Below, piece by piece: positions 5,926 to 63,384 of a stretch of DNA of 64,000 nucleotides. The DNA is from Candidatus Daviesbacteria bacterium (GTDB lineage Bacteria; Patescibacteriota; Microgenomatia; Daviesbacterales; UBA10151), in assembly GCA_030699125.1 (NCBI GenBank), contig JAUYKM010000009.1, forward strand, positions 108,647 through 172,646. The letters run 5' to 3'. The notes under the pieces are model-generated. The model was given only the letters and a program-made list of their open reading frames with translations. It had not been told where the DNA came from and did no database searches. Positions within the stretch are counted from its first letter, which is position 1, and each line of letters begins with the position of its first letter. The position numbers and the translations under genes are program-made.

Positions 5926-7606
5926 ATACTGGTGGCTTACGATCATTATTTTATCCATCCCTGCTTTTTGGGCGCTTTTGGTGCCAGGATTTTATGGAGC
6001 ATCCGATGATTTGCATATCGGGTGGCTCCATCAGATGGATAAAGTATTAAGGCTGGGACAAATTCCCCCCAGGTTTGTACCGGATTTAAGTTTCGGTTTT
6101 GGTTATCCATTATTTAATTTTGTTTTTCCCTTGCCATTCTATATTGCAGATATTTTTCACCGGATAGGTTTCAGCCTGGTAGACAGTATTAAAACTTTAT
6201 TTCTTTTAAGTCTGCCTATTTCAGGTATTTTCATGTACCTACTTTTGCGAGGATTTATTTCTCCAATATTAAGTATGGCAGGGGCAGTGATATACATTTA
6301 TACGCCCTACAGATCAACAGACATTTATGTCAGAGGAGCGATAGGGGAGATTGTCTCCTTTATATTTTTGCCACTGATAGTACTCTCCTTTATTAAACTA
6401 ACGGAAGATCATGAAAAATTTAATTTCTGGATAGGGATTGGAGCTCTTTCACTTGCTTCCCTAGTGTTGTCGCACAATATTACGGCCTTTATGTTTTTAC
6501 CGTATCTCTTTTTGTTAATAATTTTAAGGGTATTTTTTACCTCCGTAAATCCGACAGTTTCTATAAAGCGAATTTTTATATCAATAATTTTGGCTGTTTC
6601 CATTAGTTTATATTTTTGGCTGCCGGCAATGGTGGAGAGCAATCTTATGAAATATGACACTGTATTTGCAGTGGCAGACCATTTCCCCACTATTTTACAA
6701 CTAGTTACTCCTTATTGGGGATATGGCGCATCTGTGGCCGGTCCCTATGACGGCATGTCGTTTTTTATGGGGGTTATCAATATAGCCCTAATAATTGGGA
6801 CAATTTTAATACTGATTGCGTTTAGGAAAAAGATTGAAAAAGATTTAATGGTAATGACAATCTGGGCAATGATAGTAATATTTTCATCAATATTTATGAT
6901 GAATTATCGCTCTCTTTTTTTGTGGGAAAACTTACCCCTGTTACCATATTTTCAATTCCCCTGGAGATTTTTAGTAATGGTAACTTTAGCAACGCCAATT
7001 TCGGTGATCGTTTTATCAAAGTTTAAATATCAAAACTATTTGGCATTATCTATCATTGTTCTCTCTGTAGGTCTAAATGCAACAAGCTTTAGACCGCAAG
7101 ATTTCTTAGGAAGGGAAGATGATTATTACCTAAACCGTTATATACCTACCCCTCTTGCCAGTCAGGAGTATTTAGAAATTCAAGAGGAATATTTGAGATT
7201 GCCCAAAAATACTTATGCTAGGCCTGATAGGAATTATCCACTGGTATCTTCTGAGAGTGAAGAGATTGAGAATATAACCTTTATTGATGATTTAAAAACA
7301 GAAATTAATACGCAATCGAATGATAAATTTATTTTAACTTACAACAAGTATTATTTTCCGGGTTGGCAGGCAAGGGTAGATGGAATCTTGACAGAGATTA
7401 CACCAGGCACCCCCTTTGGTGAGATAAATATTCTGGTGGATGAAGGAGAGCATCAAATAGAGATTTTTTATCAGGAGAGCGGATTTCGGTTAATTCTGAA
7501 TTGGATTTCCTTTATTAGTTTCATTGTTACACTGTTTTTAATATTTAAAAACAGATTGCCAATACGCTTGTTTCAGATACATAATTTAACTAAAATTAGA
7601 GGATAG
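5897..7606 (+). CDS. Family-B polytopic membrane protein (GT-C-like), paralog 3 of 4. It is the most divergent of the four.
   Basis: It carries 'GASDDLHIGWLHQM', 'IPPRFVPDLSFGFGYPLFNFVFP', 'DIYVRGAIGE', 'SHN', 'WGYGASVAGP' and 'QFPWRFL'. The C-terminal domain contains 'YYFPGWQARVDG'. Confidence 0.55.
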   Translation: MERIENFLDKYWWLTIIILSIPAFWALLVPGFYGASDDLHIGWLHQMDKVLRLGQIPPRFVPDLSFGFGYPLFNFVFPLPFYIADIFHRIGFSLVDSIKTLFLLSLPISGIFMYLLLRGFISPILSMAGAVIYIYTPYRSTDIYVRGAIGEIVSFIFLPLIVLSFIKLTEDHEKFNFWIGIGALSLASLVLSHNITAFMFLPYLFLLIILRVFFTSVNPTVSIKRIFISIILAVSISLYFWLPAMVESNLMKYDTVFAVADHFPTILQLVTPYWGYGASVAGPYDGMSFFMGVINIALIIGTILILIAFRKKIEKDLMVMTIWAMIVIFSSIFMMNYRSLFLWENLPLLPYFQFPWRFLVMVTLATPISVIVLSKFKYQNYLALSIIVLSVGLNATSFRPQDFLGREDDYYLNRYIPTPLASQEYLEIQEEYLRLPKNTYARPDRNYPLVSSESEEIENITFIDDLKTEINTQSNDKFILTYNKYYFPGWQARVDGILTEITPGTPFGEINILVDEGEHQIEIFYQESGFRLILNWISFISFIVTLFLIFKNRLPIRLFQIHNLTKIRG

Positions 7607-7630
7607 CTAACAGTATCCGCGTATCTTTCT

Positions 7631-9364
7631 ATGGAATTTAAACAAAAGGTTTTTAATATATTAAAAAATAATTGGCAATTTTGGGTGGGTTTTGTTTTGA
7701 CCAGCAGTCTTCTCTGGCCACTCTGCGCAGCTCCTCTATTTAGCCATCATGATGATACAACCATCATCAGGCTTTATGAGATGGATAAATGTATTAAGGA
7801 TGGTCAGATACCCTGTCGGTGGGTACCTGATTTGGGAAATTTGTATGGTTACCCTCTTTTTAATTACTATGCCCCCCTCCCCTATTATTTTGGAGAAATA
7901 TTTTACTTTTTAAGTGGCAACTTAATCTTTTCAGTCAAGATAATGTTTGTCGTCTCCTTTTTGGGAGCTTATGTTTTTATGTATCTTTTTGGAGCAAAGT
8001 TCTGGGGAAAGTTGGGCGGCAGTTTATCTGCCATTTTTTATAGTTTTGCCCCATACCACGGCCTAGATTTTTACGTTAGAGGAGCCATGGGAGAGATGTG
8101 GGCATTAATGTTTTTTCCTTTGGTTGTTTATCTACTGATCAGGCTGAAAGACAAATTGAGCATCTTAAATTCATTGCTCTTAGCTACTTCTGTTGCTTTA
8201 TTAATTACTTCTCATAACCTTTCGGCCATGATCTTTCTACCCATTGTATTTTTATTGTATCTCTTACTTTTTATAGAAAAAAAGCAAATTAAGTTTCTGT
8301 TATACGGATTTGCAGCATTTTTAATAGGTATCTTTTTATCTTCATTCTACTTACTACCTGTGCTTGTTGAAAGAGATTTGGTTCATGTTGAGACCACTAC
8401 TTATGGTTATTTTTCCTATACAGAGCATTTCAAAGGATTTAAAAAGCTATTTTTAGAAAGAGATTGGGGATATGGGGCTTCAGTTAGAGAGATACCAGGA
8501 GGGGAGAGAGATAGACTGTCTTATCAGATCGGTTGGGTCCATCTTTTAGGTTGGATTTTGGCTCTGGTTGGCGCTTATATTTTACGGAAAAAAGAAAAAA
8601 GGGTTAGCCTCATAATAATTGTTTCCTCATTTATCATTGCCCTGGCAGTTTTTATGGTCAATCCTAGATCAATATTCATTTGGCAGGCAGTAGAACCTCT
8701 AAAGTATCTGCAATTTCCTTGGAGATTTTTACTTATTATCATCTTTCTCGCCTCATTTATTAGTGGGGCAGTTTTTTTAATATTAAAGGATCAAGTTAAG
8801 CAAAAGTTGATATGGTTAATTTTAGTTATTTTGGTTGTGACATTAAATTTTTCCTATTTTCGTCCGGAAAAATTTATTCAAACTTCAGATGAAGATCTTT
8901 TAACAGGCAGCAATTGGGAGAGACAGATCAAAAGAGCCATTCTTGATTATCTTCCTAAATCAGCAAGTGAGCCACCGGCTGAATTAGCCAGGGAAAGATA
9001 TCAGCTTCTAACAGGGGATTCATTTATCTATGATTTTAAGCAAGGGTCTAATTGGTTTTCATTTAAGACTAATACTAATACACATACTATTATCAGACTC
9101 TCTCAATACTATTTTCCAAAATGGAAGATCTTTATTGACGGTAAAGAAACTCTAATCGACTATAAAAATAACAGCTTGGGCTTAATGACAATAATTTTAG
9201 GAGAAGGAAATCATATTGTGGAAGGAAGATTATATGATACTCCAATTAGAACTATCGCTAACCTTTTAACTTCAGTATCAGCTCTCATAGTAGTAATCTT
9301 CTTGCTTTTACATATTCCGATCACAAGAAGTTGGATTAAATATTATAAGGAGAGGATTGCTTGA
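7631..9364 (+). CDS. Family-B polytopic membrane protein (GT-C-like), paralog 4 of 4.
   Basis: It carries 'FSHHDDTTIIRLYEM', 'IPCRWVPDLGNLYGYPLFNYYAP', 'DFYVRGAMGE', 'SHN', 'WGYGASV' and 'QFPWRFL'. The C-terminal domain contains 'YYFPKWKIFIDGKE'. Confidence 0.6.
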   Translation: MEFKQKVFNILKNNWQFWVGFVLTSSLLWPLCAAPLFSHHDDTTIIRLYEMDKCIKDGQIPCRWVPDLGNLYGYPLFNYYAPLPYYFGEIFYFLSGNLIFSVKIMFVVSFLGAYVFMYLFGAKFWGKLGGSLSAIFYSFAPYHGLDFYVRGAMGEMWALMFFPLVVYLLIRLKDKLSILNSLLLATSVALLITSHNLSAMIFLPIVFLLYLLLFIEKKQIKFLLYGFAAFLIGIFLSSFYLLPVLVERDLVHVETTTYGYFSYTEHFKGFKKLFLERDWGYGASVREIPGGERDRLSYQIGWVHLLGWILALVGAYILRKKEKRVSLIIIVSSFIIALAVFMVNPRSIFIWQAVEPLKYLQFPWRFLLIIIFLASFISGAVFLILKDQVKQKLIWLILVILVVTLNFSYFRPEKFIQTSDEDLLTGSNWERQIKRAILDYLPKSASEPPAELARERYQLLTGDSFIYDFKQGSNWFSFKTNTNTHTIIRLSQYYFPKWKIFIDGKETLIDYKNNSLGLMTIILGEGNHIVEGRLYDTPIRTIANLLTSVSALIVVIFLLLHIPITRSWIKYYKERIA

Positions 9365-48743: not shown

Positions 48744-49775
48744 ATGCCAGAAAAACCAGCAGAATCAAGATGGCTTTATAATCAACCTACTCCCGGTATT
48801 GTAGAGAATTGGTATAGAAGAAATGAGGCTAAGATAAGAAGCCAATGGATTGACCCTAAAATATTAGATGGTGCTTTCATTATGGCAAGTACTGCAGAAG
48901 AGATGAATGGAACGCTTAATTTTAGATATTCGCAAGATAGAGTGGTCATGACTAGAACTGGTTTAGAGGTACCCAGAAGAGATTCACAACTTTATGATGT
49001 TTGGCAAGCTCACAAAAGAGATATGGAAACTAGAGGAGAACGAGATGGGGCAAAATACAGTGTCAGAAGATCCTCTCCATTTCTGACAGATAGTGAACTT
49101 CAGATTGAAGTTTCTGACTTTAGCTGGTCTGGGATGGAACTAAATAATGATGTCAATATAGGCGTACTACCTGAATCATTAAGAGATGGAATATTGCCTA
49201 CCTTAAGATCGGAAGGATACGTTTTTGAGGGTGAACCTCCTAATAATGCAGTTGTCCAAGGTATTATTACCACCAAAGATAAAAAATTAGTTTTAACAAC
49301 AAGAGCTGTTAATGCACAGTATTATCAGGGAACAGTCTCACCCTCTTTTGAGGAGCAAATAGATAGAGATAAAGATGATGATCCTATCGAAACATATTTA
49401 AGGGCTGTCTCATATTCACCGAAATTAAAAAGAGGTGAAGAATTACGACTGAATGTTAGACCCGAAAATATCAGATTAGTCTCTATGGTTTTAGAACCGC
49501 AGTTTAATGCAGTGGGGTTTGTAGTGTTAGGAGTTTGTGAAGAAGAATCCGAGGAAATAGACGAGACTAAGTTTGGGGTGGATAGATCTGAGTTTAATCC
49601 TGAAAAACCAATTTGGACCTTACCATTGGATGAGCCATCTCAACTTCTCAGAGATTTTTATAATCCACAAGGCTTTAGGTGGCATGGAATTGGTAGGGAG
49701 AGAGTGGTAGATGCTCTTGCATCAGTACTTGGTTATGAGGAAGCACTTGATAGATTCTATAAGGCCAGACCTTAA
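48744..49775 (+). CDS. Hypothetical soluble acidic protein of 343 aa; function unknown.
   Basis: It has no TM segment or signal peptide and no motif I recognise. It contains several Cys/Trp and acidic stretches such as 'GVCEEESEEIDE'. It has its own upstream sigma70-like promoter. Confidence 0.5.
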   Translation: MPEKPAESRWLYNQPTPGIVENWYRRNEAKIRSQWIDPKILDGAFIMASTAEEMNGTLNFRYSQDRVVMTRTGLEVPRRDSQLYDVWQAHKRDMETRGERDGAKYSVRRSSPFLTDSELQIEVSDFSWSGMELNNDVNIGVLPESLRDGILPTLRSEGYVFEGEPPNNAVVQGIITTKDKKLVLTTRAVNAQYYQGTVSPSFEEQIDRDKDDDPIETYLRAVSYSPKLKRGEELRLNVRPENIRLVSMVLEPQFNAVGFVVLGVCEEESEEIDETKFGVDRSEFNPEKPIWTLPLDEPSQLLRDFYNPQGFRWHGIGRERVVDALASVLGYEEALDRFYKARP

Positions 49776-49827: not shown

Positions 49828-51156
49828 ATGGACGAGAAAAAAATTGCTATATTTGGGGTAGGCAGAGTAGGACTTCCGCTTGCTTTAGTTTTGGCTGATA
49901 AAGGATTTCAAGTTACGGGAATTGATGTTGATCCCTATAGAATTTCTCTTTTGAAACACAAAATCATGCCTTTTTTGGAAGAAGGGGCACAACCTCTTTT
50001 AGAAAAACATTCTGGTAAAAACTTTCAGATTTTTTCCCAACAACATTTAGATAGGGTAGTATCTGAGAACGATATAATAATTTTAACTTTAGGTACTCCC
50101 ATTGATGATACCTACAGTCCTGACTTTGGTGGAATAGAGGATTTATTAAGAAGTATGGCACCTTCAATAAAGAATGACCATCTAATTATTTTTAGAAGCA
50201 CTTTATCCCCTGGAGCTACTGAACAATTAGCAAGGCAGTTAGAAGAACAGACAAAACTAGAAGTTGGGAAAAATTTATTTATTGTTTATTGCCCGGAAAG
50301 AATTGCTGAGGGAAAATCAGTTGAGGAGTTGGGACAAATCCCTCAAATAATTGGTAGCTTGGATGATGTAAGTGCCAAAAAAGCAGCGGAAGTTTTTGAA
50401 AAAATTGCTCCCAAAATTTTATTTACTAACCCCCGTTCTGCCGAACTTGCCAAATTATTTTGCAATATGTATCGCTATATTGATTTTGCCATCGGGAATG
50501 AATTCATGATGATTGCAGAAGATTATGGATGTGATATTTATGAAGTTTTAAATTTAGTTAATAATGACTATAAAAGGGCTGGGTTAAAAGCTCCCGGCTT
50601 GACTGCGGGTCCGTGTCTTGTTAAGGACGGCTTTTTCCTGATAGATAAGAGCCCTTTTATGGAACTGGTCACGGCAGCATGGAGACTTAATGAGAATATT
50701 CCAGGATATTTACTTTCCAAAATTAAGTCGGAAATTAAGGATTTACACAAGAAGAAAGTGGCTATTTTAGGTTTGGCATTTAAGAAAAATATTGATGATA
50801 TCCGCTATTCTCTTTCTCCAAAAATGCAAAGATATTTTTTAGCAGAAGGGGCAGATGTTTCTGTTTCGGATCCTTTTATAGATTCTAAACCAATCGAGGG
50901 TGCTCTAAAAGGGACAAATATCTTGGTGATTGGTATAAATCATGATATTTATAAAAATTTGGATTTTGGTTATTTAAAAAAATTGGTCTCTGATGATTGT
51001 TTGGTCTGTGATATCTGGAATATCTTTAACACCGGAAAAATCATCTTTTATTTAAAAGATGTGGTTGCTAAATCAGAGGATGGGATTCGATCAAATGGGG
51101 AGGTTAGACCATATAGTAAAAAAAGGAAGGCGGAACGCCCTGGATTAGGTGTATGA
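49828..51156 (+). CDS. Nucleotide-sugar 6-dehydrogenase (UDP-glucose / UDP-ManNAc dehydrogenase family).
   Basis: It carries the N-terminal Rossmann motif 'KIAIFGVGRVGLPLAL', then 'CPERIAEGKSVEEL', 'GPCLVKDG' with the catalytic Cys, and 'GLAFKKNIDDIRYS'. Confidence 0.7.
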   Translation: MDEKKIAIFGVGRVGLPLALVLADKGFQVTGIDVDPYRISLLKHKIMPFLEEGAQPLLEKHSGKNFQIFSQQHLDRVVSENDIIILTLGTPIDDTYSPDFGGIEDLLRSMAPSIKNDHLIIFRSTLSPGATEQLARQLEEQTKLEVGKNLFIVYCPERIAEGKSVEELGQIPQIIGSLDDVSAKKAAEVFEKIAPKILFTNPRSAELAKLFCNMYRYIDFAIGNEFMMIAEDYGCDIYEVLNLVNNDYKRAGLKAPGLTAGPCLVKDGFFLIDKSPFMELVTAAWRLNENIPGYLLSKIKSEIKDLHKKKVAILGLAFKKNIDDIRYSLSPKMQRYFLAEGADVSVSDPFIDSKPIEGALKGTNILVIGINHDIYKNLDFGYLKKLVSDDCLVCDIWNIFNTGKIIFYLKDVVAKSEDGIRSNGEVRPYSKKRKAERPGLGV

Positions 51157-52109
51157 AGACAAAGATACTGGTGACAGGTGGGGCGGGATTTATTGGTAGT
51201 GAGGTTGTAAAACAACTTATTGAAAGAGGGTACCAAGTCAGAGTAGCTGATGATTTATCAAAAAAAGAGGCTAAAGTCCCTAAAGAATGTGAGTTCTTGA
51301 AGCTTGATTTGACTAAAAAAGAAGCAGCGTTACGGGCAATGGAAGGGATAGATTATTGCATACATTTGGCAGCCAAAATTGGCGGGATTGGCTATTTTCA
51401 TAAATATCCAGCAACAATACTTTCCGAAAATAATAAAATGTACTCTGCTGTGTTTGAAGCAGCGGTTGCCAAAAAAATAAAAAGAATTATTTATTTATCC
51501 TCATCCATGGTTTTTGAATCAACTAATAGATTTCCCAGTAAAGAGAGTGATTTGGATAAAATTCCCCCTCCGGTCTCAAGTTATGGTTTCTCCAAATTAG
51601 TGGGGGAGTGGTACTGCAGAGCTTTTAGAGACGAATATGGACTCCCTTACACCATCATAAGACCCTTTAATGCTTATGGCATAAATGAAGCTCCAGGAGA
51701 AGAGATAGGTTATGCTCATGTTATCCCGGATTTAATAAAAAAAATATTGTCTGGCCAATATCCGCTGGAACTTTTAGGAAATGGAAGGCAAACCAGATGT
51801 TTTACTCATGTTTCAGATATTACTAGGGGAATAATACTGGCCATGGAATCTGATAAAGCAATTAATGATGATTTCAATATTGGCTCGGAGAAAGAAATGA
51901 GGATGCTAGATTTAGCAGAGCTACTCTGGCGAAAATGTAATGCAGACAAACCATTTAAAGTTAAATATGTAAAAGGCTTTAAATACGATATTAAAAGAAG
52001 AGTACCATCCTCAAAAAAAACAAAAAAAATATTGAAATGGGAACCCAAAAAGAAATTTGAGCAAGAGTTACCGGAAATTATTAATTGGATTAGTCATAGT
52101 ATTTCTTAA
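51153..52109 (+). CDS. NAD-dependent nucleotide-sugar epimerase/dehydratase (extended SDR).
   Basis: It carries 'KILVTGGAGFIGSEVVKQL', the 'YGFSK' active-site YxxxK motif, and 'RPFNAYG'. Its 5' end overlaps gene 49828 by 4 nt. Confidence 0.75.
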   Translation: MKTKILVTGGAGFIGSEVVKQLIERGYQVRVADDLSKKEAKVPKECEFLKLDLTKKEAALRAMEGIDYCIHLAAKIGGIGYFHKYPATILSENNKMYSAVFEAAVAKKIKRIIYLSSSMVFESTNRFPSKESDLDKIPPPVSSYGFSKLVGEWYCRAFRDEYGLPYTIIRPFNAYGINEAPGEEIGYAHVIPDLIKKILSGQYPLELLGNGRQTRCFTHVSDITRGIILAMESDKAINDDFNIGSEKEMRMLDLAELLWRKCNADKPFKVKYVKGFKYDIKRRVPSSKKTKKILKWEPKKKFEQELPEIINWISHSIS

Positions 52110-53604: not shown

Positions 53605-54111
53605 ATGAAAAGATTAGTATATTTTCTCGCCATCAATTTTTTAATTATACCCTCAATTTTAGTTGCCATTACGCCTAATGTGGTTTATGCGGATGAGATT
53701 GAGGATTTAAAACTGGAGAAGCAACTGGTCAATCCTGACTCTTTCTATTACCCTGCTAAGAGATATATTGAGAATCTACAAAATATGTTTATGTTTTCTA
53801 AAGATAGTAAAGTAAATTTACATAAAAATCTTCTTAAAAAAAGAGCCTCTGAATTAAAGTATATTGTAGAAGATAGGGTTTTATCGGAACTAGAAAGAGG
53901 TTCACAAAGATTTGCTTATCAAGCAGGGATCTTAGTTGAGGAAGCAGAAAAAGATTACACCGAACAAGGTAAGAAGGAAATTAAGGATCAGTTCAGCAAA
54001 TATAAAAAATTACTCGATCAATTGAGAGAAAATTTTAAAGCTAACTCAAGTTTTTGGATGCTAATTCAACAGGATATAGATACACTTGATATACTTTCCG
54101 AAAAGATTTAA
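53605..54111 (+). CDS. Secreted, predominantly alpha-helical protein of 168 aa; function unknown.
   Basis: It has the signal peptide 'MKRLVYFLAINFLIIPSILVAITPNVVYA/DE'. The remainder is charged and coiled-coil-like. Confidence 0.5.
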   Translation: MKRLVYFLAINFLIIPSILVAITPNVVYADEIEDLKLEKQLVNPDSFYYPAKRYIENLQNMFMFSKDSKVNLHKNLLKKRASELKYIVEDRVLSELERGSQRFAYQAGILVEEAEKDYTEQGKKEIKDQFSKYKKLLDQLRENFKANSSFWMLIQQDIDTLDILSEKI

Positions 54112-54688: not shown

Positions 54689-55294
54689 CTAGTCTAAAAA
54701 GACCGAATATATAGTTATGATTAAATCTTTATTTTCATCAAATTCCTTTGCTCCGATTGATACTGCTTCATAATCTCCAGAGAGCCAATTAAGCCGTTTC
54801 TCCTGTTCGACCTGTCCGCTATCAATTTGCCAATCTAATGTTATGATATTATTAATTTCATCAGTACCAATATCCTGGGGTTGCCAACCGGGTCCCTGGC
54901 CTACTCTATGTATACCGATATCAAACTTTATAGGTTGATTAACCTCCATTTTGATGTTAATTGTTTTAGCGCGGAATAATATTTCTTTTGGGATTCTCTT
55001 TTTGCACTGTATCATGAAATGAGTAGTATCCTTGTAGGTAAACTGGATATGTGATTCCACTTCATCATTAAAAGATTTGGTACTAGAGATCAGGAAAGGT
55101 TTTTTTATTACGTCAACCCAAGAGTTAATATCATTAAGGTCACAAGCGTAAAACCGCTCAGTTAACCGTTGTGGTTTAATTGGGTTGGCAGTAACAAATA
55201 TCGTCCATGTAAACACTATAGTAATTATAATTACTAATAGTTTATTAATTAAGTGAAACCTATTTATTTTCAGTATGCGACTCAAGTACATCAT
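54689..55294 (-). CDS. Small N-terminally anchored or secreted protein, paralog A (201 aa); function unknown.
   Basis: The N-terminal TM is 'LLVIIITIVFTWTIFV', followed by 'ANPIKP'. It has two conserved Cys, 'VNQPIKFDIGIHRVGQGPGWQP' and 'RLNWLSGDYE'. Confidence 0.55.
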   Translation of the reverse strand: MMYLSRILKINRFHLINKLLVIIITIVFTWTIFVTANPIKPQRLTERFYACDLNDINSWVDVIKKPFLISSTKSFNDEVESHIQFTYKDTTHFMIQCKKRIPKEILFRAKTINIKMEVNQPIKFDIGIHRVGQGPGWQPQDIGTDEINNIITLDWQIDSGQVEQEKRLNWLSGDYEAVSIGAKEFDENKDLIITIYSVFLD

Positions 55295-57068
55295 CTTTTA
55301 TATCAATAAGCTTTGTGCCCTCAATACGAAATGCAAAAAATGAATTAGTGGCAATAAGATCTTCTTTCTCTTCATTAAGGATATTATTGATGTCTTCTCT
55401 ATTAAATATAAAGTTTACCTGAGGCGGATTATTTATTTCTCCTAAATGTATAGGTACTCTCCTTTTAAATACTGCATTTGCTATTTTTTCATCAAAATCC
55501 TTATCAAGCTCTAAATAAATATAAGTTACTTCTTCCTTTGCCAGGAGCTGAGAAATAGTAGGCTCAAGCATAATCCATACAGAGTCATACTTAGAAGCAT
55601 TAATATTATGACCTTCTTGTATCAGAAATTCTCTTGTCGAAATTGCCTGAATAAATATGAGCCACAAACCGATTACAATAAGAAAGAAACTAAAAACAAT
55701 TGAAGTGAAATAACTAAAAAGGGACGATAATTGGAATAAATTTCTTTTTACTTGCAGTAGACGATCTTTAATTGAATAAAAACAAATGGCAAGTACCGAA
55801 CCTATTAGCATACCCATACCTATACTTGGAACAGTGTAATAACGATGTATATAGGTAAATGCTGATTGATCATTTCCTGAAACTTCTGGAGATATTAACC
55901 ATGGTATCAAAAGATTAGCAAGCACAATGCCACTACCCAAAAGGCCTATTTGAGAAATTTCTTTAAACCGATTCCAATATTTAATAAGTACTAGATTTGA
56001 TAGGAGGAAAAAAGTACCGCCAAACTGAGTAATTGGTATCCAAACGGCTTGCCAACCTTCAAGATTTTTTAAGGAATAACCTACCAGAGGCGAGAAGATC
56101 ACTACTGGGATTGATAAAAACACCAGTAAAAACTTCCTTTTTAAAAAGAGATTAAATGAGAAGAGTATCGCAAATAAGGGGATAATCTGTGGTAAGTTTT
56201 GTATCAGGGTAGTGCTTATATAGCCATAATTTACAGAGAATGGTGAGATAATTAGGTTGCTGATAAAAAACCATAAGGAAAGTATAACTGGAGGATACCC
56301 TGTAAAAAGGGCCAGCAATAAAATGGACGGAGAGACTCTTTTATATGATAATTCAGGGGTAGAACTTAATGTACCGGTTATAAAGATAAGCAAAAAAATG
56401 ACAGCGATAAGGGTAAGAAAGTGATAAACTCTGATTCTCCTACCCCTCTCTTTATAATTTTTGAAAAACCAATAAAATTCTCCTGCAAAAGTCAAAAGAA
56501 CAGTACCTACCAATCTTACAGGATGAGTAAGAACGGTTAATAAAAAAAAGGAAATTGAGCCTATAAGTGTTTTTCTGGTGGGGTGTTGGTGAAATTGAAA
56601 CCACTTTCCCAAAAAAAATGAAAAAACTATTATTGCTGTATATATTTGAAAAAGAGATACTCGAGTAGTTGACTGAATTCCTGCAGTATTAATTCCAAAA
56701 AAGAGTGCAGCAATAGAGGCTGTTATTCTATTTTTTGACCATTTAACAACAAAATAATATATCGATATAACAGCTAAAATTCTCAAGACCACATTTAAAA
56801 TAAAATAATATTTAGAGTTAAAATCAAAAAAGCGGTAGGCAATAGCTAAAGAGGTAAATTGAGTACCATATTGATGAAAATAATAAAGAGGTGAAGGATG
56901 CAGAAAGCTCACATTTCTGCCAAAATGCCCCTCACCTTTAACAATGCTTAAATCCTCATGACTTGGATCAGGAAGGATATGAAAGAGTGCAGGATATAAA
57001 ACAATAAAAGTCACTATGACTACAAATAGGATAGGTAAAAATGATAAAAAATTATGTTTAAAGGTCAT
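55260..57068 (-). CDS. Polytopic membrane protein of 602 aa (GT-C-like candidate), downstream of a GtrB-like GT2.
   Basis: It has about 13 TM helices and a C-terminal hydrophilic domain of about 150 aa. Its 5' end overlaps GT2 gene 57065 by 4 nt. Confidence 0.45.
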   Translation of the reverse strand: MTFKHNFLSFLPILFVVIVTFIVLYPALFHILPDPSHEDLSIVKGEGHFGRNVSFLHPSPLYYFHQYGTQFTSLAIAYRFFDFNSKYYFILNVVLRILAVISIYYFVVKWSKNRITASIAALFFGINTAGIQSTTRVSLFQIYTAIIVFSFFLGKWFQFHQHPTRKTLIGSISFFLLTVLTHPVRLVGTVLLTFAGEFYWFFKNYKERGRRIRVYHFLTLIAVIFLLIFITGTLSSTPELSYKRVSPSILLLALFTGYPPVILSLWFFISNLIISPFSVNYGYISTTLIQNLPQIIPLFAILFSFNLFLKRKFLLVFLSIPVVIFSPLVGYSLKNLEGWQAVWIPITQFGGTFFLLSNLVLIKYWNRFKEISQIGLLGSGIVLANLLIPWLISPEVSGNDQSAFTYIHRYYTVPSIGMGMLIGSVLAICFYSIKDRLLQVKRNLFQLSSLFSYFTSIVFSFFLIVIGLWLIFIQAISTREFLIQEGHNINASKYDSVWIMLEPTISQLLAKEEVTYIYLELDKDFDEKIANAVFKRRVPIHLGEINNPPQVNFIFNREDINNILNEEKEDLIATNSFFAFRIEGTKLIDIKDDVLESHTENK

Positions 57069-57757
57069 TTTAGATAGTAACGTAATTTTAGCATATCAAT
57101 CATTGCTCCGATGATGGATTTTAAATGTGCTCCAGTTGCTTTGCCGCCTTTACGGGGAAAATAACTTATAGGCACAGATACTATCTTAAAGCCTAACAGC
57201 TGAGCTCTGATTATTCTTTCGGCTTCAGAAAAAACACTCTTAGAGATTGGTGTAGTTTTTTTTAAAACCTCCATTTTATAAACTTTATTACTTCCGGCAT
57301 CATATAATTTAACACCAAACAATATCTCCGGAAGTATATTATAAATATAGCTCAGAGCTTTTCTGAAAATTCCATAGTAGACTTTCGTTCTTCTTTTTCC
57401 AATAATCAAATCATATCTCTCATCTACTTTATCAAGCATTTTCGACAGATCTTTAATAGTGTATTGACCATCAGCTGCATTTATAAACACTAATTGTTTA
57501 GATGCTTTTTTGTAAAGAAACTCCAGTCCTCCTGAAATACCTAAAGGTTTCTTTTGATGAAATATTTTTATTTTGGGGTATTTTTTAGAGTAAAAATCTA
57601 ATATTTGACCTGTTTTATCACTGCTAGCATCATCGTTTACCAAAATTTCCCAATTTCTGGTCAATTTGGATAGTACATCCAGTGATTCCTCTATAACTTT
57701 TTTTACAGAATTTTCTTCATTCTTAGCAATTATTACAGCGGAAATAGAATATGTCAT
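57065..57757 (-). CDS. GT2 polyprenyl-phosphate sugar synthase (Dpm1/GtrB-like).
   Basis: It carries 'ISAVIIAKNEENSV', 'ILVNDDASSDKT', 'KKPLGISGG' and 'FINAADGQY' (DXD). Confidence 0.65.
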   Translation of the reverse strand: MTYSISAVIIAKNEENSVKKVIEESLDVLSKLTRNWEILVNDDASSDKTGQILDFYSKKYPKIKIFHQKKPLGISGGLEFLYKKASKQLVFINAADGQYTIKDLSKMLDKVDERYDLIIGKRRTKVYYGIFRKALSYIYNILPEILFGVKLYDAGSNKVYKMEVLKKTTPISKSVFSEAERIIRAQLLGFKIVSVPISYFPRKGGKATGAHLKSIIGAMIDMLKLRYYLK

Positions 57758-58791
57758 CTGTCTAGAATAATTGGTTTGTTTTTTTGAATAGATTCATCAC
57801 AAGCCTCAAGTAAAGAAATAATCTCAATATTCATTTTGGCATTTTCATAACTAATTTTTTTGTTCAAGATCTGCTTGATTACCTCATCTATTTCCACATA
57901 TAATGCTTCTTCGTTTTCCAATTTTGGGATAACTATTTTTCCACTTCGATAAATTGGTTTAAAAGGAGTTACAGTATTTGTAGGCAAGCTGATACCTCTA
58001 TCATAGATTTTAACTTTTTCATCCGGTTCTACATCATCATAAAAAATCATTTTCTTTGTCCCCCCTATTAAAATAGTTCTAAGCTTAACCGGAGAGATCC
58101 AAGAAACATGAATATGAGCTATAAAATTATTTGAATAGTTTATGGTGATATGAGCCATTTCTTCTCTGGTATTATCCCCATGATGTTTAGAACCCGTACA
58201 GAAAATTTTAGTGGGTTTAAGGTTGAAGCAATAAATCAATATAGCCAGATCATGAGGAACCAAATCCCAAATAACGTTAATATCCTGCTGGATAAGTCCC
58301 AAGTTTGATCTGGTTGAATCATAATATAGAGGTTCCCCTAGTAGTGATCGATTTTGAGTAAGATCTTTAATGGCTTTGATTGCTCCCGTATACAAATAAG
58401 TTAGGTCACAATGCAGCAGAAGTCCTTTCTTTTGTGCTAAATTTATTAGTTTTTTTGCATCTTGAGACTTGGTGGCTAATGGTTTTGCCACTATTATGTG
58501 TTTATTAGCTTTTAGGGCATTATAAGCAATCTGAAAATGAGTTTGGGGAGGTGTTGCTATTGCCAATAGATCTATTGTTTTATCTGATAAAATATCCTGA
58601 TAATTCTTAGTTAACTTGATATTAGGATAATATTTGTTAATCTTTTTAAGAGATTCGTCAGATAAGTCACAGGCCCAAATAACTTCTGCCTGATCATGGC
58701 CCATTAGATTCCTTATAAAATTTGGACCCCAATAGCCTACCCCTATTACAGCTGTTTTTATTTTCGGAGGAAAAAACTTGCTCATTTTCAT
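57754..58791 (-). CDS. Gfo/Idh/MocA-family NAD(P)-dependent oxidoreductase, likely a nucleotide-sugar dehydrogenase/oxidoreductase.
   Basis: It carries the N-terminal Rossmann 'KTAVIGVGYWGPNFIRNL' and 'HIIVAKPLA' (an EKP-like motif). Confidence 0.7.
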   Translation of the reverse strand: MKMSKFFPPKIKTAVIGVGYWGPNFIRNLMGHDQAEVIWACDLSDESLKKINKYYPNIKLTKNYQDILSDKTIDLLAIATPPQTHFQIAYNALKANKHIIVAKPLATKSQDAKKLINLAQKKGLLLHCDLTYLYTGAIKAIKDLTQNRSLLGEPLYYDSTRSNLGLIQQDINVIWDLVPHDLAILIYCFNLKPTKIFCTGSKHHGDNTREEMAHITINYSNNFIAHIHVSWISPVKLRTILIGGTKKMIFYDDVEPDEKVKIYDRGISLPTNTVTPFKPIYRSGKIVIPKLENEEALYVEIDEVIKQILNKKISYENAKMNIEIISLLEACDESIQKNKPIILDR

Positions 58792-58837
58792 ATTTATTCA
58801 AAAATTTTTACAATAATACCATAATTAGCAGAGATTA

Positions 58838-58867
58838 TTTACACAAGCTACTTGATCTTGTTAGAAT
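58838..58867 (+). promoter_or_regulatory. Candidate sigma70-type promoter for the plus-strand operon starting at 58877: a TTTACA -35 box, an 18-nt spacer, then a TAGAAT -10 box.
   Basis: TTTACA lies at 58838-58843 and TAGAAT at 58862-58867. The ATG at 58877 is about 9 nt downstream. This is a divergent intergenic region between the minus-strand operon ending at 58791 and the plus-strand operon. Confidence 0.3.
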
Positions 58868-58876
58868 AGGTTTTCA

Positions 58877-59950
58877 ATGAATAGAATATTAATTACAGGG
58901 ATAGGAGGATCAGCTGGTTTGGGGTTTGTAAACTCTTTAAAAGATTCAGGAGAAGAATGTTATATTATTGGATGCGACAGTGATAAATATTCCTTAGAAA
59001 GAGCAAAAGCAGATGAAAAATATCTGGTTCCTTTATGTAGAGATAAGAACTATTTAAAAGTCTTAAAAAAAATTATCAGAAAAACTGAGCCCGATTTGAT
59101 CTATTCTCAAGTGGATGTGGAAATTGAAGTCTTATCTGAAAATAGAGAAATTTTTGAAAAAATGGGAGTCAAAACCTTTTGGCCGTCCAAAAAAGTAGTT
59201 AAGATTTGTCAAAACAAGCACCTTTCTTATTTAGCTTGGAAAAAAGCAGGGATGACTGTTCCAAATACAATCCTTATAGATAATGGGGATGATTTAAAAA
59301 AAGCAATCAGGAAATTTGGGTTACCAATATGGATAAGAGAGATTAAGGGAGCTTTTGGGAAAGGATCCCTTCCAGCTAATTCTTTTGAGGAAGCAGCAAT
59401 TTGGATTGATGCTCACAAAGGTTGGGGGAAATTTAGTGCGGCAGAACTTTTAGACGCAGAAAGAATGGTTACTTGGCAGTCAATTTGGTATAAGGGCAAC
59501 TTGATAATTGCTCAAAGTAGAAAAAGACTTTACTGGGAATTTGCTAACAGAGTTCCTTCTGGCGTGACGGGCTTGACGGGTGCGGGAATAACGGTTAAGG
59601 ATAAGTTAGTGGATAAACTAGCCATAAAAGCCATAAAAGCAATAGATAAGAAACCACACGGGATATTTAGTGTTGATTTCACTTATAATAAAAAAGGGAT
59701 TCCTAATCCAACAGAAATAAACATTGGTAGATTTTTCACAACCCACTATTTTTTTACCAAGGCTGGATTAAATATGCCATATATATATGTCAAACTTGCT
59801 CTTAAAGGTGAGATACCTAAAATTAAAAATAAAATAAATCCGCTCAAAGCTGGTCTGGTTTGGATACGCGGACTAGATTTCGAGCCAATTTTAACAACTA
59901 TAGATCATTTAAAATTATATGAAAAAAAGCTAAAAGCGCTTACCGATTAA
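58877..59950 (+). CDS. ATP-grasp-fold ligase (candidate carboxylate-amine ligase).
   Basis: It has the N-terminal pre-ATP-grasp 'ILITGIGGSAGLGFV'. The central region 'WIREIKGAFGKGS...' and its length are consistent with ATP-grasp enzymes. The assignment is tentative. Confidence 0.45.
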   Translation: MNRILITGIGGSAGLGFVNSLKDSGEECYIIGCDSDKYSLERAKADEKYLVPLCRDKNYLKVLKKIIRKTEPDLIYSQVDVEIEVLSENREIFEKMGVKTFWPSKKVVKICQNKHLSYLAWKKAGMTVPNTILIDNGDDLKKAIRKFGLPIWIREIKGAFGKGSLPANSFEEAAIWIDAHKGWGKFSAAELLDAERMVTWQSIWYKGNLIIAQSRKRLYWEFANRVPSGVTGLTGAGITVKDKLVDKLAIKAIKAIDKKPHGIFSVDFTYNKKGIPNPTEINIGRFFTTHYFFTKAGLNMPYIYVKLALKGEIPKIKNKINPLKAGLVWIRGLDFEPILTTIDHLKLYEKKLKALTD

Positions 59951-59952
59951 TT

Positions 59953-60843
59953 ATGAGAATTATTCTAACAGGAGCAACAGGATTTATTGGAAGTCATCTA
60001 ATACCGCAACTTCTTAATGATAGCGAAATTAAAAAAGTCTTATTATTAATCCGGAATGTTGACAAACTAAATAGGGAATATTTTAAGAATAAAAAGGTAG
60101 AGATATTAGAGATTGATTTACTTAGGGTGAACATACCAAGATTGCCAAAATATGATGTATTGATTCATTTAGCAGATATTATACCTTCCAAAAAGGATGT
60201 AACGAATTTTTCCGATAATATAAGAATTGTAGAAAATATTATTAACAGTATAATTTTAAAAAAGGTTGTCAAAAAAGTAATTTATACCTCCACCTTAGAT
60301 GTTTATGGGAAAATTATTTATTTGCCAGTAGATGAGGTTCATCCTACTAATCCATTAACTTTCTATGGTATTTCCAAATTGGCCAATGAATTATTAATTA
60401 TTAGGGCATCAAGGAATGCCAAGATAAGTTGTATAATATTAAGATTGTCTCAGGTTTATGGACCAAATGAACCTTTAGTAAAAGTGATACCTTTATTTAT
60501 TAAAAAGATAAAAAATAGTGAGGAAATCTCATTAAAAAATAAGGGCAAAATTATTCGTGATTGGGTATACGTCAAAGATGTAGTATCAGCAATTGATAAT
60601 GCTTTATACGCTAACTCCCAAGGCATTTTTAATATAGCCACAGGCAAGGGTTATCCACTTGAGGAATTAATAAAAATTCTAGGTAAACTTGCTAATAACA
60701 AACCTAAAATAATAAAGGAAGCTAACAATAACGAATTAAGACCAAAAATTATTCTAGGTATTGAAAAGGCAAAAAAGTTATTAAATTATCATCCCACTTA
60801 TTTTTTAGAAAAGGGCCTTAAGGATTATTTAGAAAACTTATGA
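59953..60843 (+). CDS. NAD-dependent epimerase/dehydratase (SDR family).
   Basis: It carries 'MRIILTGATGFIGSHLIPQL' and 'YGISK' (YxxxK). Confidence 0.7.
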   Translation: MRIILTGATGFIGSHLIPQLLNDSEIKKVLLLIRNVDKLNREYFKNKKVEILEIDLLRVNIPRLPKYDVLIHLADIIPSKKDVTNFSDNIRIVENIINSIILKKVVKKVIYTSTLDVYGKIIYLPVDEVHPTNPLTFYGISKLANELLIIRASRNAKISCIILRLSQVYGPNEPLVKVIPLFIKKIKNSEEISLKNKGKIIRDWVYVKDVVSAIDNALYANSQGIFNIATGKGYPLEELIKILGKLANNKPKIIKEANNNELRPKIILGIEKAKKLLNYHPTYFLEKGLKDYLENL

Positions 60844-61466
60844 AAATTTTCTTTGATCTAGATGGGACACTGATAGATGTATCGAAAAGATATTATTTTG
60901 TCCATAAAAAAGCGGCACTAGTTATTGGCAAAAAATCGTTATCTTTTAAAGAATATTGGCAAAAAAAAAGAAAAAAAATTCCAGAGAATAAAATCTTAAA
61001 TATAGATAGCGAGAGTTCTCAATTTAAAGAATATCAGAAAATAAGAATAAATTTGTTAGAAAATTTAGACTATCTGAGTCTAGATACCCCATTTGAAAAT
61101 GTATTTGATACCTTGGTTGCATTGACCAAAAAACATAAGTTGTATCTGATTACCTTGAGAAGGAATGAAAAGAATTTAAATACCCAACTTAAACAACTTA
61201 AACTAAATAAATTTTTCATAAAAATTTTTTCATCTCCTCCGGATAAAGATCTTACAATAACAAAAATAAAAATTATAAAGAACTTGGGATACTCAAAGAA
61301 TGATTTGATTATAGGGGATACGGAAGCTGACACTGAAGCGGCAAAAAAATTAGGTATAAGATCTGTGGCAGTATTTAGCGGAATTAGGACTGAATCTTTT
61401 TTAAAAAAATATCATCCGGATATATTAATTAAAGATGTTTCGCATTTGCTCAAGATCCACTTATGA
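60840..61466 (+). CDS. HAD-superfamily hydrolase/phosphatase.
   Basis: It carries motif I 'FFDLDGTL' and motif IV 'GDTEADTEAAKKLG'. Confidence 0.7.
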   Translation: MKIFFDLDGTLIDVSKRYYFVHKKAALVIGKKSLSFKEYWQKKRKKIPENKILNIDSESSQFKEYQKIRINLLENLDYLSLDTPFENVFDTLVALTKKHKLYLITLRRNEKNLNTQLKQLKLNKFFIKIFSSPPDKDLTITKIKIIKNLGYSKNDLIIGDTEADTEAAKKLGIRSVAVFSGIRTESFLKKYHPDILIKDVSHLLKIHL

Positions 61467-61482
61467 TAATATAAAATTCAGC

Positions 61483-63384
61483 ATGCCTTTTTTAAAAAAT
61501 TCTACCTTTTGGATTTTTACACTATTACTAGTTATTGTATCGGTTATTCAATTTACGATATTTCAGCCATTAATTGAGAATAGCCGTCTAATTAATTTTA
61601 GAGATGATTTATTGTTTCTTTTAATGTACAAAACATTGGATCCTGAGCCTATAAGTCAATTTTGGAATGTTTGGACAAAATACTCCGGTCTACACAACAC
61701 GGCCCATGTGTATCACATTGGAATATTGTCTGAATTTTTAGGTAACAACTATCAATATTATCCAACAGCAAATATTTTATTAAAAATTGTGGCAACTTTA
61801 TCTATTTTTCCTGCGGTAATTGTTATTTTTAAAAACAGATTACTGGCTTTTTTATCCTCCATTCTTTTTAGTATTAGCTCTGCCACTGCCGGTTCGCTTT
61901 TTCGGGTAAGTAATGGAAATGATTACGTAGCATTGACAATAATGAATATTTTCTTTATCAGTTATTATTGGATTTTCGTAAAGCATTCAAAAGGGCTGCT
62001 TGTATTATCAGCTCTTCTTTTTTTTATAGCTTATTTAACATCTCCTGGTAGAATATTTCCACTATTGTTGCTTATTTTTCTAGTTGAAATATTCTGGTTA
62101 TTGAAATTGCGCAATATTAATAATATAGGATTTTCCTTAGTTAGAATAATCTTCTATCTCATTCCAGTTTTTCTAATCTCTATTCCGGCGCCTGTTTCTA
62201 CATGCTGTCCCCTTATCAGTCAATCGCATACGTTACTTAAGGATATTATCAGCGGTAGTTTGTTTAATTTACTTGATCCCTTTGCATCAATTGGATGGAC
62301 AATATTTACCAATGATTACTGGAGATTTTTCGGCATCTTTGATTACAAAAGTTTAACTAATTTTGGTGATTACTTATCCTTCTTACTTAAAGGCCCAACT
62401 TTTATTTTCGGAACCTTGACACTTATATTATCTTTAATTTTAGTTAAAAAGCCACTCAGATTTTTCTTAAAGGTTTTTATTTTTAATTTTACACTTGAGG
62501 TTTTAATATTTTTTATAGCCAACAAGCATCCTACTCTAACAGAAGCGGACACATTCCAGTTACTCTTATTAAGATATCCAACATTGGTAAGCATATATAT
62601 TCTAACTTTAGCTTTGATTATTTTTTTGAGTTGGAGGAAAAATGATCTCAAAAGTGGTGTATCAAACGCTTTATGGGTTGGACCATTTATATCAATAATA
62701 TTTTTATGGCCAATGTGGGTTATAATGGGCCGTTTAATTAATGATTGGCATAGTGTGATTAGATATTTTCTCTGGCCAGCCTTAGGAACCTCTTTATTTG
62801 TGGGAGTAATATTATCTGCATTTTATGAAAGATTAAAAGGTAAAGATTTCCTTAGATACCTTTCAGTAATTATTATTTCTATTATCATCTTTAATTTATA
62901 CTTAAATAACAAAGAGGCCATTCAAAAAGAATTTCTGCCCGAAGGTGCACAGAAAATCAAAGTTACAGATCAGCGAATATTACAGGAGAAATTAGTAAGA
63001 AAATTGGATAGATCTGCTCAGAAAGGTGATCTATTAATTTATTTTGATTTTGAACAATCTGATTTGGGTTCTCAATATTATATTGAAGCCCTTCCTGTAG
63101 AGGCATTAGGAGTTATGCTCCATGTTAATAGAGGAAAGGGAACAAGTGGCTGTATAGCTGGTTTTACTGATCAAAAGGTATTTAAAAGTAGTATTAAAGA
63201 AAAAAATAATGAAATTGGCTTTGAGTACCCAGGGGTTTGTGTTAATGAAGATATAGTAAAAGCGGGTCTCAAAGAGAGTACAGAACCTCATTTCTTCACA
63301 CTTGATAAATTCTATGCGTTTAGTATAGAAAACGGAGATTTTGTGGATGTAAAAACTGATGTTTTAAGGGAATTAGGTATTTAA
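61483..63384 (+). CDS. Large polytopic membrane protein with a C-terminal soluble domain; family unknown.
   Basis: It has more than 12 TM helices and a hydrophilic C-terminus of about 170 aa. The start is placed at the ATG at 61483 (MPFLKNSTFW) to avoid a 32-nt overlap with the HAD gene. Confidence 0.45.
   Translation: MPFLKNSTFWIFTLLLVIVSVIQFTIFQPLIENSRLINFRDDLLFLLMYKTLDPEPISQFWNVWTKYSGLHNTAHVYHIGILSEFLGNNYQYYPTANILLKIVATLSIFPAVIVIFKNRLLAFLSSILFSISSATAGSLFRVSNGNDYVALTIMNIFFISYYWIFVKHSKGLLVLSALLFFIAYLTSPGRIFPLLLLIFLVEIFWLLKLRNINNIGFSLVRIIFYLIPVFLISIPAPVSTCCPLISQSHTLLKDIISGSLFNLLDPFASIGWTIFTNDYWRFFGIFDYKSLTNFGDYLSFLLKGPTFIFGTLTLILSLILVKKPLRFFLKVFIFNFTLEVLIFFIANKHPTLTEADTFQLLLLRYPTLVSIYILTLALIIFLSWRKNDLKSGVSNALWVGPFISIIFLWPMWVIMGRLINDWHSVIRYFLWPALGTSLFVGVILSAFYERLKGKDFLRYLSVIIISIIIFNLYLNNKEAIQKEFLPEGAQKIKVTDQRILQEKLVRKLDRSAQKGDLLIYFDFEQSDLGSQYYIEALPVEALGVMLHVNRGKGTSGCIAGFTDQKVFKSSIKEKNNEIGFEYPGVCVNEDIVKAGLKESTEPHFFTLDKFYAFSIENGDFVDVKTDVLRELGI

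Follow-up and report, generated by a model that had tools for sequence, protein, structure and literature searches.

A conserved ATP-grasp, epimerase and phosphatase cassette in a Candidatus Daviesbacteria glycan island, with a possible role in making amide-decorated sugars for the cell envelope

In a stretch of 64,000 nucleotides from a Candidatus Daviesbacteria bacterium of the candidate phyla radiation (CPR) (contig JAUYKM010000009.1, positions 108,647 to 172,646; hereafter the window), a Gfo/Idh/MocA oxidoreductase gene lies divergent to an operon that encodes an ATP-grasp ligase, a short-chain dehydrogenase/reductase (SDR) and a HAD phosphatase. Do these four enzymes act together and, if so, what would they make? 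An earlier reading of the letters alone (the sequence-only reading) had taken them for a nucleotide-sugar tailoring set that might amidate hexuronic acids with amino acids. We favour, with a probability of roughly 0.5, a cassette in which the four enzymes, a small family 2 glycosyltransferase (GT2) and two membrane proteins would produce an amide-decorated sugar that a lipid carrier would bring to the cell envelope. What we observe directly are gene identities, intact catalytic motifs, conserved synteny and gene fusions; every chemical step of that route is our inference.

All four open reading frames are present at the positions originally proposed, each with strong family matches (Table 1). 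On the plus strand, 2 nt separate the ATP-grasp stop from the SDR start, SDR and HAD share 4 nt, and HAD extends 32 nt into the gene of the polytopic membrane protein orf649. On the minus strand, Gfo and the GT2 gene overlap by 4 nt and are translationally coupled, and GT2 in turn overlaps orf602, which encodes another polytopic protein. This packing fits two divergent operons. The region between them contains a promoter-like site (TTTACA-18-TAGAAT with a TG extension, 10 of 12 matches, identified as a consensus match only) that ends 10 nt before the ATP-grasp ATG.

Neighbourhoods were analysed for the best 80 loci of 418 species representatives (loci are cited below by L numbers), and neighbours were counted in the 57 of these that are flanked by 4 kb or more in each direction, considering genes up to 5 kb from the ATP-grasp gene. 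The most frequent neighbour is the HAD phosphatase (47 of 57 loci, 82%), followed by the GalE-like SDR (44/57, 77%), a DegT aminotransferase (37/57, 65%), Gfo/Idh/MocA (36 to 39 of 57, 63% at 36), a small ArnC/DPM1-like GT2 (25 to 26 of 57, 44%) and a nucleotide-sugar 6-dehydrogenase (7/57, 12%), the last being directly coupled to ATP-grasp or Gfo in a few loci (L029, L064, L041, L065, L086). The genes canonically run DegT-Gfo-ATPgrasp-SDR-HAD-(DegT)-GT2, stop and start codons frequently overlap, and many loci have the Gfo orthologue directly upstream of ATP-grasp. In Chloroflexi loci, a CE4 deacetylase is found in place of Gfo/DegT and can even be fused to HAD. Fusions within the set comprise SDR to HAD (a 499-aa JGI gene and six genome loci, L032, L038, L052, L063, L066 and L073), ATP-grasp to SDR (L024) and HAD to CE4 deacetylase (L021). 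The proteins of the window match their L004 orthologues with 341 (Gfo), 285 (SDR) and 168 bits (HAD), and the window GT2 matches orthologues that adjoin ATP-grasp in L011, L012, L018, L030, L044 and L066 with 111 to 140 bits.

Because the same genes recur beside this ATP-grasp family in dozens of unrelated genomes, their grouping goes far beyond chance. Judged by these sequence comparisons, the Gfo, ATP-grasp, SDR and HAD of the window belong together as the core of one conserved cassette. Synteny, overlaps and fusions thus uphold the proposal of a single nucleotide-sugar tailoring set, and the objection that a genome-wide view might assign its members to separate pathways falls away, since the cassette genes recur together across loci.

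The ATP-grasp protein itself is 100% identical to an NCBI protein from a metagenome-assembled genome annotated as 'carboxylate--amine ligase'. Its Pfam coverage consists of the PylC-like N domain (PF21360), above cut-off, and a weak PF02222 match, and the best NCBIfam model, NF009402 (PRK12767.1-1, CPSase-like), reaches 106.6 bits against a cut-off of 218 and spans residues 2-173 only. An AlphaFold2 (AF2) model (pLDDT 87, pTM 0.86) and a Foldseek search with it agree on the three-domain ATP-grasp fold. The top match is 2pn1, an uncharacterised structure, and biotin carboxylases, PurK, L-amino-acid ligases and carbamoyl-phosphate synthetase follow at 12-19% identity; there are 734 PDB matches at E ≤ 1e-3, and the 50 listed are ATP-grasp enzymes with TMq 0.56-0.70. 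The family alignment has 80 invariant columns, the arginines R42, R90, R215, R217 and R331 among them, and K114, R154, D267, E280-I-N282 and R285 are invariant among 20 aligned members; we take these residues, by our own reading and not from a superposition, to correspond to K116/K159/E276/E288/N290/R292 of biotin carboxylase.

Several known ATP-grasp enzymes were considered for this protein and rejected on their model scores: PurT (27.7-30.5 bits, cut-offs 339/502), PurK (19.4 bits, cut-off 326), CarB (21.8-25.7 bits, cut-offs 599/1027), Ddl-type D-Ala-D-Lac ligases (Van; 15-18 bits, cut-offs 700-760) and biotin carboxylase (19-22 bits, cut-offs 739-768). By profile models and structure, then, the ligase groups with none of PurK, PurT, Ddl or CarB, a grouping that the sequence-only reading had named as a refutation, and its matches place it outside housekeeping metabolism, in a large, strongly conserved and uncharacterised family. 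A homologue search returned 2538 proteins, of which the best 120 are 53-76% identical to the query, and overall identity within the family is 48-76% across bacterial and archaeal phyla. The top homologues (54-76% identity) come from Patescibacteria, Omnitrophota, Desulfobacterota, Chloroflexota, Acidobacteriota and DPANN archaea, and when one genome was scanned for each species, 418 species proved to encode a relative.

None of the four window proteins has lost its catalytic motifs. The Gfo protein has GVGYWG, AKP and D..PH; its best NCBIfam match is the archaeal UDP-GlcNAc 3-dehydrogenase NF040723 (116.5 bits against a cut-off of 450, 43 bits ahead of the next model) and its PDB matches include 7bvj and 3q2k. 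The HAD protein has its nucleophile motif (D6-L-D8-G-T-L) and its C-terminal acidic motif (G159-D-T-E-A-D164), and reaches no NCBIfam equivalog cut-off. The SDR carries the GxxGxxG NAD motif as GATGFIG, T/S112-114 and Y138xxxK142. Compared with solved structures, the SDR family profile matches T. maritima GalE best (4zrm, 219 bits), with the UDP-GlcA 4-epimerases 6zl6 (201 bits) and MoeE5 (6kv9, 186 bits) in second and fifth place; the GalE equivalog model gives 82 bits, below its cut-off of 262. These matches place the SDR in the nucleotide-sugar 4-epimerase branch (GalE/UDP-GlcA 4-epimerase) of the extended SDRs and predict an epimerase-like enzyme.

One stretch of the SDR deserves attention. 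Residues 112-119 read S-T-L-D-V-Y-G with an unusual acidic residue at 116, and cassette SDRs generally carry S-T-x-[D/E]-V-Y-G, D or E at 116 being kept in most of 27 aligned sequences. This position is Ser/Thr in GalE-type epimerases and Glu in decarboxylases and dehydratases; the nearest solved structures of the cassette SDRs are nevertheless epimerases. The conserved D/E might hint at a decarboxylase-like role. RmlB-type 4,6-dehydratases have an Asp-Glu pair in a T-D-E-V-Y-G motif. A nucleotide-sugar 4,6-dehydratase was considered for the SDR and rejected, as it has the single acidic residue and no Asp-Glu pair.

Distant relatives of the ligase bear on the phosphatase. On S. meliloti pSymB (L089 9261-11931), a PHP-family 'histidinol-phosphatase', an ATP-grasp protein and an extended SDR follow each other in a row; this ATP-grasp protein is the NF009402 archetype (465 bits) and the SDR of the triad has the cassette SDR as its best match (117 bits). 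Immediately upstream of the S. meliloti triad are the cysD-nodQ-cysQ genes for sulfate activation, and a GT4 gene and one for polysaccharide biosynthesis lie nearby. On a Clostridium estertheticum plasmid (NZ_CP086250.1, L088 9192-17785), a 47%-identical ATP-grasp protein occurs in a context other than glycosyltransferases, along with a HisC-like aminotransferase, an APH-family kinase, a histidine-phosphatase-family protein and an extended SDR. Two HydE/PylB-like radical SAM enzymes, a classical SDR and an HprK-related protein also belong to this neighbourhood, and a PqqD-family protein, a CPBP protease and an ABC transporter are encoded upstream.

The phosphatase partner is thus drawn from three different superfamilies across the relatives (HAD, PHP and histidine-phosphatase). 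Such swapping argues that a substrate or the product of the ligase carries a phosphate ester and that the phosphatase is integral to the pathway. A phosphatase as obligate partner also makes a phosphorylated co-substrate more likely than a free amino acid, which tells against the amine partner named in the sequence-only reading.

The following route would accommodate these parts. In most relatives a dehydrogenase (Gfo/Idh/MocA or, in some, a DAO-type flavoenzyme) and DegT would generate an amino group. The ATP-grasp enzyme would activate a carboxylate as acyl phosphate and condense it with that amine, one of the two partners being a UDP-sugar; one partner would bear a phosphate ester, to be removed by HAD after ligation. 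The SDR would epimerise the nucleotide sugar. The small GT2 would then load the product on polyprenyl phosphate, from which a GT-C-type enzyme would transfer it outside the membrane, as in the Arn pathway. We tentatively extend this to the family as a whole, which would represent a new class of sugar-nucleotide amide synthetases acting on a phosphorylated partner that the phosphatase unmasks, and feeding an Arn-like polyprenyl-phosphate/GT-C route. If true, neither CoA nor folate would be needed for this kind of surface-glycan decoration, which would be common among CPR bacteria, DPANN archaea and many phyla without cultured members.

Which of the two partners would be the sugar? Two regiochemistries appear about even: a UDP-hexuronic acid might be amidated at C6 with a phosphorylated amine (a), or a UDP-amino sugar might be N-acylated with a phosphorylated acid (b), and the neighbour statistics point both ways. 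In favour of (a) may be cited the analogy with the Campylobacter glucuronamide, the set of HisC-like enzyme, kinase and phosphatase in the Clostridium locus, the closeness of the SDR profile to UDP-GlcA 4-epimerases, the few loci in which a 6-dehydrogenase is coupled to the cassette, the WbpD-like acetyltransferase that would use up a sugar amine in about six loci, and the fact that the ATPgrasp-SDR-phosphatase triad stands alone in S. meliloti, in the window and in several other loci. Suggestive of (b) are the Gfo protein, nearest to a UDP-GlcNAc 3-dehydrogenase, DegT proteins that resemble ordinary nucleotide-sugar aminotransferases, the presence of DegT in most loci with no other N-acyltransferase, the CE4 deacetylase of Chloroflexi as another way to expose a sugar amine, the rarity of a 6-dehydrogenase nearby, and a parts list that would parallel Arn with ATP-grasp in the formyltransferase's place. 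An amide-forming role is what we retain, as the best reading, of the amidated uronic acid proposed at the outset; its tie to uronic acids becomes one of these two roughly equal options.

Delivery on a lipid carrier is suggested by three features taken together: the ArnC-like GT2, a Desulfobulbus propionicus locus in which the ATP-grasp gene (Despr_0344) precedes genes for a GT2 of this kind, for a flippase-like TIGR00374 protein and for a PMT_2 GT-C enzyme, and the two polytopic proteins that close the divergent operons. They suggest an Arn-like route from nucleotide sugar to polyprenyl-phosphate sugar and transfer outside the membrane. The best NCBIfam matches of the small GT2 are ArnC (49 bits, cut-off 529) and dolichyl-phosphate hexose transferase (42 bits), both below cut-off, and the same type also comes near PpgS-type enzymes, again below cut-off. 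The operon-closing proteins orf602 and orf649 are weak paralogues of each other (E 3e-10), and orf649 has more than 10 predicted transmembrane (TM) segments and a C-terminal soluble domain. Neither has a Pfam or NCBIfam match, and both are unrelated to the other membrane proteins of the window, including PMT_2/YfhO; we regard them as candidate GT-C-type transferases.

A number of observations weigh against the amide-decorated sugar as we have drawn it. The closest is local: the window and 6 kb beyond it contain no gene for DegT, a HisC-like aminotransferase, CE4, a (hexapeptide) acetyltransferase, acetolactate synthase (ALS) or DAO, and the closest relatives (L091, 76% identity; L090, 72%; L004, 71%) all have DegT beside ATP-grasp. 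With no aminotransferase in the window, the step that forms the amine must have its gene in another place or be lacking in this case; either the aminotransferase is to be sought on another part of the 360-kb contig or this copy of the cassette is incomplete. More widely, 17 of the 57 loci are without an amine-generating gene nearby, and about six pair Gfo-DegT with a WbpD-like acetyltransferase, which would consume the amine. An Omnitrophota/Planctomycetes variant is without DegT and HAD and has an acetolactate-synthase-type thiamine diphosphate (ThDP) enzyme and a FabG-like reductase, and it fits neither the uronamide nor the N-acylation option neatly. By analogy, the variant may be a YerE/YerF-like branched-sugar route or a hydroxy-acid supply line. 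Its loci (L087 10001-14532; also L033, L036, L043, L048 and L069) run Gfo or SDR, ATP-grasp, FabG-like SDR, ThDP enzyme (607 bits, above cut-off) and GT2.

To the same side belong the ATP-grasp family, which has no characterised member and for which all library models stay below cut-off, and the GT-C assignment of orf602/orf649, which is one of topology only. A literature search for ATP-grasp plus Gfo/DegT/HAD cassettes, or for ATP-grasp N-acylation of amino sugars, returned nothing relevant. Finally, the ATP-grasp profile aligns to Cj1438C of Campylobacter jejuni with an hhalign probability of 0.4%, which makes the analogy a functional one only, and the window HAD is not homologous to Cj1435 (BLASTP E 4.9; both Campylobacter sequences are from the supplement of PMC11800397). 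Homology to these proven uronamide enzymes was therefore rejected for want of similarity. A literature search on a further lead, the threonine-attaching step of the Methanococcus N-glycan (AglU/MMP1084), gave nothing usable.

How do other explanations of the locus compare? The one nearest to the sequence-only reading has the ATP-grasp enzyme amidate C6 of UDP-GlcA or UDP-GlcNAcA, made by the neighbouring 6-dehydrogenases, with a free amino acid, HAD and Gfo being incidental. Two dehydrogenase-type genes do lie within 8 kb, 6-dehydrogenases are coupled to ATP-grasp or Gfo in the few loci listed above, the SDR profile is close to 6zl6 and 6kv9, and a common metabolite as the amine would fit a window without an amine-forming enzyme. 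We consider it unlikely all the same. Co-location with uronic-acid-forming dehydrogenases, on which it was originally argued, does not generalise, with a 6-dehydrogenase within 5 kb in only 7 of the 57 loci; a free amino acid would need no phosphatase, and HAD, as the most conserved partner, fused to SDR and swapped for other phosphatases, is not incidental. Moreover, the known ATP-grasp-type uronic-acid amide ligase, Cj1438C, is unrelated, and an AsnB-type amidotransferase beside the short dehydrogenase is available for a uronamide. Unlikely, too, is a triad that makes a small amide metabolite (an amino-alcohol amide or something peptide-like), perhaps attached to a glycan later, instead of tailoring a nucleotide sugar. 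The PylC-like N domain of the ATP-grasp protein would suit it, as would the C. estertheticum homologue (47%), found amid radical SAM, HisC-like, APH, HprK-related and PqqD proteins and no glycosyltransferase. Across the 80 loci, however, the neighbours are almost always glycosyltransferases, DegT, nucleotide-sugar SDRs and ArnC-like GT2s, and the SDR is clearly of the nucleotide-sugar (GalE) type.

Carboxylase chemistry, in which a PurK- or biotin-carboxylase-like carboxyphosphate would turn a sugar amine into a carbamate, is suggested by the structures that follow 2pn1, mainly biotin carboxylases and PurK (TM 0.65-0.70), and by sources that label some family members 'carbamoyl-phosphate synthase large subunit'. 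We judge it very improbable: identities are 15-19%, NCBIfam scores are 17-30 bits against cut-offs of 300-1000, L-amino-acid ligases score about equally in the structure search, and the conserved phosphatase would be left without a role. Lastly, the entire 64-kb window consists of glycan genes, so proximity within it is weak evidence, and the four genes might be mere neighbours from separate pathways, or the ATP-grasp a housekeeping enzyme. Given the conserved order, the overlapping start and stop codons and the fusions across phyla, with housekeeping models nowhere near their cut-offs, we see next to no room for this. The amide-decorated, lipid-carried sugar remains the reading that we prefer.

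Table 1. Features of the cassette and its surroundings (positions are those of the window unless a locus is named)
Feature	Position	Strand	Basis or remark
Polytopic membrane protein orf602, 602 aa, downstream of GT2	55260-57068	-	TM prediction
Small GT2, ArnC/DPM1-like polyprenyl-phosphate glycosyltransferase	57065-57757	-	PF00535, 81.6 bits
Gfo/Idh/MocA NAD-dependent oxidoreductase (sugar 3-dehydrogenase-like)	57754-58791	-	PF01408 E 6e-25, PF22725, PF02894
Divergent intergenic region, 85 bp	58792-58876		promoter-like site inside
Promoter-like site	58838-58867	+	consensus match
ATP-grasp carboxylate-amine ligase, PylC-like N domain	58877-59950	+	PF21360 PylC-like_N E 3e-13; weak PF02222
Extended GalE-like NAD-dependent SDR	59953-60843	+	PF01370 E 1e-38
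HAD-IA phosphatase, phosphoglycolate-phosphatase-like subfamily	60840-61466	+	PF13419 E 3e-15 (57 bits), PF00702
Polytopic membrane protein orf649, 649 aa, last gene of ATP-grasp operon	61435-63384	+	TM prediction
Nucleotide-sugar 6-dehydrogenase, 442 aa	49828-51156	+	TIGR03026, 298 bits
Extended SDR, 318 aa, translationally coupled to 6-dehydrogenase	51153-52109	+	
Short UDP-sugar-dehydrogenase-like gene, 259 aa	63386-64165 (window ends 64000; = L084 14510-15289)	-	
AsnB-type glutamine amidotransferase, 605 aa, then ArnC-like GT2	L084 15333-18109, just past window end		

The surroundings of the cassette form a glycan island throughout the window, with GT2s, GT4s, a Wzx-type flippase and more than 20 GT-C-like membrane proteins (PMT_2, PTPS_related, YfhO). 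Between 1058 and 47990 lie more than 20 large polytopic proteins, several of them PMT_2/PTPS_related/YfhO, in tandem paralogue runs (four proteins at 2565-9364, with 225-400 bits to one another, and a second run at 16259-36462), interspersed with GT2 and GT4 genes. This set implies many lipid-carrier-dependent extracytoplasmic glycosylation steps, and the abundance of GT-C proteins in the window counts in favour of lipid-carrier delivery in the cassette as well. Both the 6-dehydrogenase and the SDR coupled to it, which the sequence-only reading had pointed out near the cassette, are real genes, the former resembling UDP-ManNAc/GlcNAc dehydrogenases (201 bits) more than UDP-Glc dehydrogenases (140 bits). 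We treat this pair only as context of the cassette. Directly 5' of the 6-dehydrogenase is a soluble 343-aa open reading frame (48744-49775, plus strand) with no Pfam or NCBIfam match. A DUF5667 protein is encoded at 53605-54111 (plus strand), between methyltransferase/GT2 genes and two small membrane-anchored open reading frames; the DUF5667 domain is largely confined to CPR bacteria.

The second dehydrogenase near the cassette, described at first as truncated, is indeed dehydrogenase-like, but the window end cuts it only slightly and the full gene is naturally short. It has the NAD-binding and central domains and the GGRC catalytic Cys motif, and is without the C-terminal UDP-binding domain; a 265-aa counterpart (35% identity) occurs beside a GT2 in the unrelated locus L086. 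A pseudogene was rejected in view of this counterpart and of the retained Cys motif, and by comparison with it the protein appears to represent a conserved short form. An AsnB-type protein (TIGR01536, 453 bits) and an ArnC-like GT2 (198 bits to ArnC) follow immediately beyond the end of the window. AsnB-type enzymes are classical uronamide formers. The AsnB-type amidotransferase next door is therefore a second, independent candidate for uronic-acid amidation, and with the short dehydrogenase and the ArnC-like GT2 it makes up another candidate module, distinct from the cassette, for a lipid-carried uronamide.

Very little is known about the surface glycans of CPR bacteria, DPANN archaea and further phyla without cultured members, and the cassette occurs in at least 418 species representatives. 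Once defined, its chemistry would name a new sugar substituent and annotate thousands of genes now called 'carboxylate--amine ligase' or 'hypothetical'. Two carriers are in culture, Desulfobulbus propionicus DSM 2032 and Clostridium estertheticum DSM 14864, which brings experiments within reach. No new biological principle is involved; what can be expected is, most likely, a new enzyme family within the known logic of glycan tailoring.

That logic is best seen by comparison with known systems. Ligation followed by dephosphorylation, the pattern that we propose, is also that of cobinamide-phosphate synthesis in the cobalamin pathway (CbiB/CobC). For glycans, Campylobacter is so far the only case that we could document, and the cassette would give a second, non-homologous example. 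In the glucuronamide of C. jejuni HS:2, a DegT-type enzyme supplies a phosphorylated amine (serinol phosphate or ethanolamine phosphate), Cj1438 couples this amine to glucuronate, and the HAD protein Cj1435 then strips the phosphate (PMC11800397). The parts of that system are the pyridoxal-phosphate enzymes Cj1437/Cj1436, the C-terminal amide ligase of Cj1438 and Cj1435, and Cj1438 acts on the polymer, not on UDP-GlcA (PMC11800397). Both HS:2 and the cassette combine a DegT-type enzyme, an ATP-dependent ligase and a HAD protein in glycan loci; unlike HS:2, the cassette includes a GalE-like SDR, Gfo/Idh/MocA and an ArnC-like GT2.

Closer in its list of parts is the Arn pathway of polymyxin resistance (Ugd, ArnA, ArnB, ArnC, ArnD, ArnE/F and ArnT). 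The cassette loci share with it a 6-dehydrogenase, an extended SDR, DegT, an N-acylating step, an ArnC-like GT2, a CE4 deacylase (in some loci) and PMT_2/GT-C. Yet the N-acylator of the cassette would be ATP-grasp and not a formyltransferase, its Gfo/Idh/MocA and HAD have no known Arn counterpart, and Arn equivalog scores are all below cut-off. A Gfo-family 3-dehydrogenase (WbpB/WlbA/GnnA) acts together with an aminotransferase (WbpE/GnnB) in other pathways, and kanosamine is made by the trios NtdC/NtdA/NtdB and RifL/RifK/RifM. The Gfo-DegT pairing is common to all of these and the cassette, as is, in the kanosamine routes, a HAD phosphatase; they are not known to include an ATP-grasp enzyme, and the window is without their aminotransferase. 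The best sequence and structure neighbours of the window ATP-grasp are found in the PRK12767 family, in the S. meliloti protein and PDB 2pn1. Alignment is good in the N-terminal half only (29% identity over 181 aa) and the family is itself functionally uncharacterised; its S. meliloti member, too, has a phosphatase on one side and a related extended SDR on the other.

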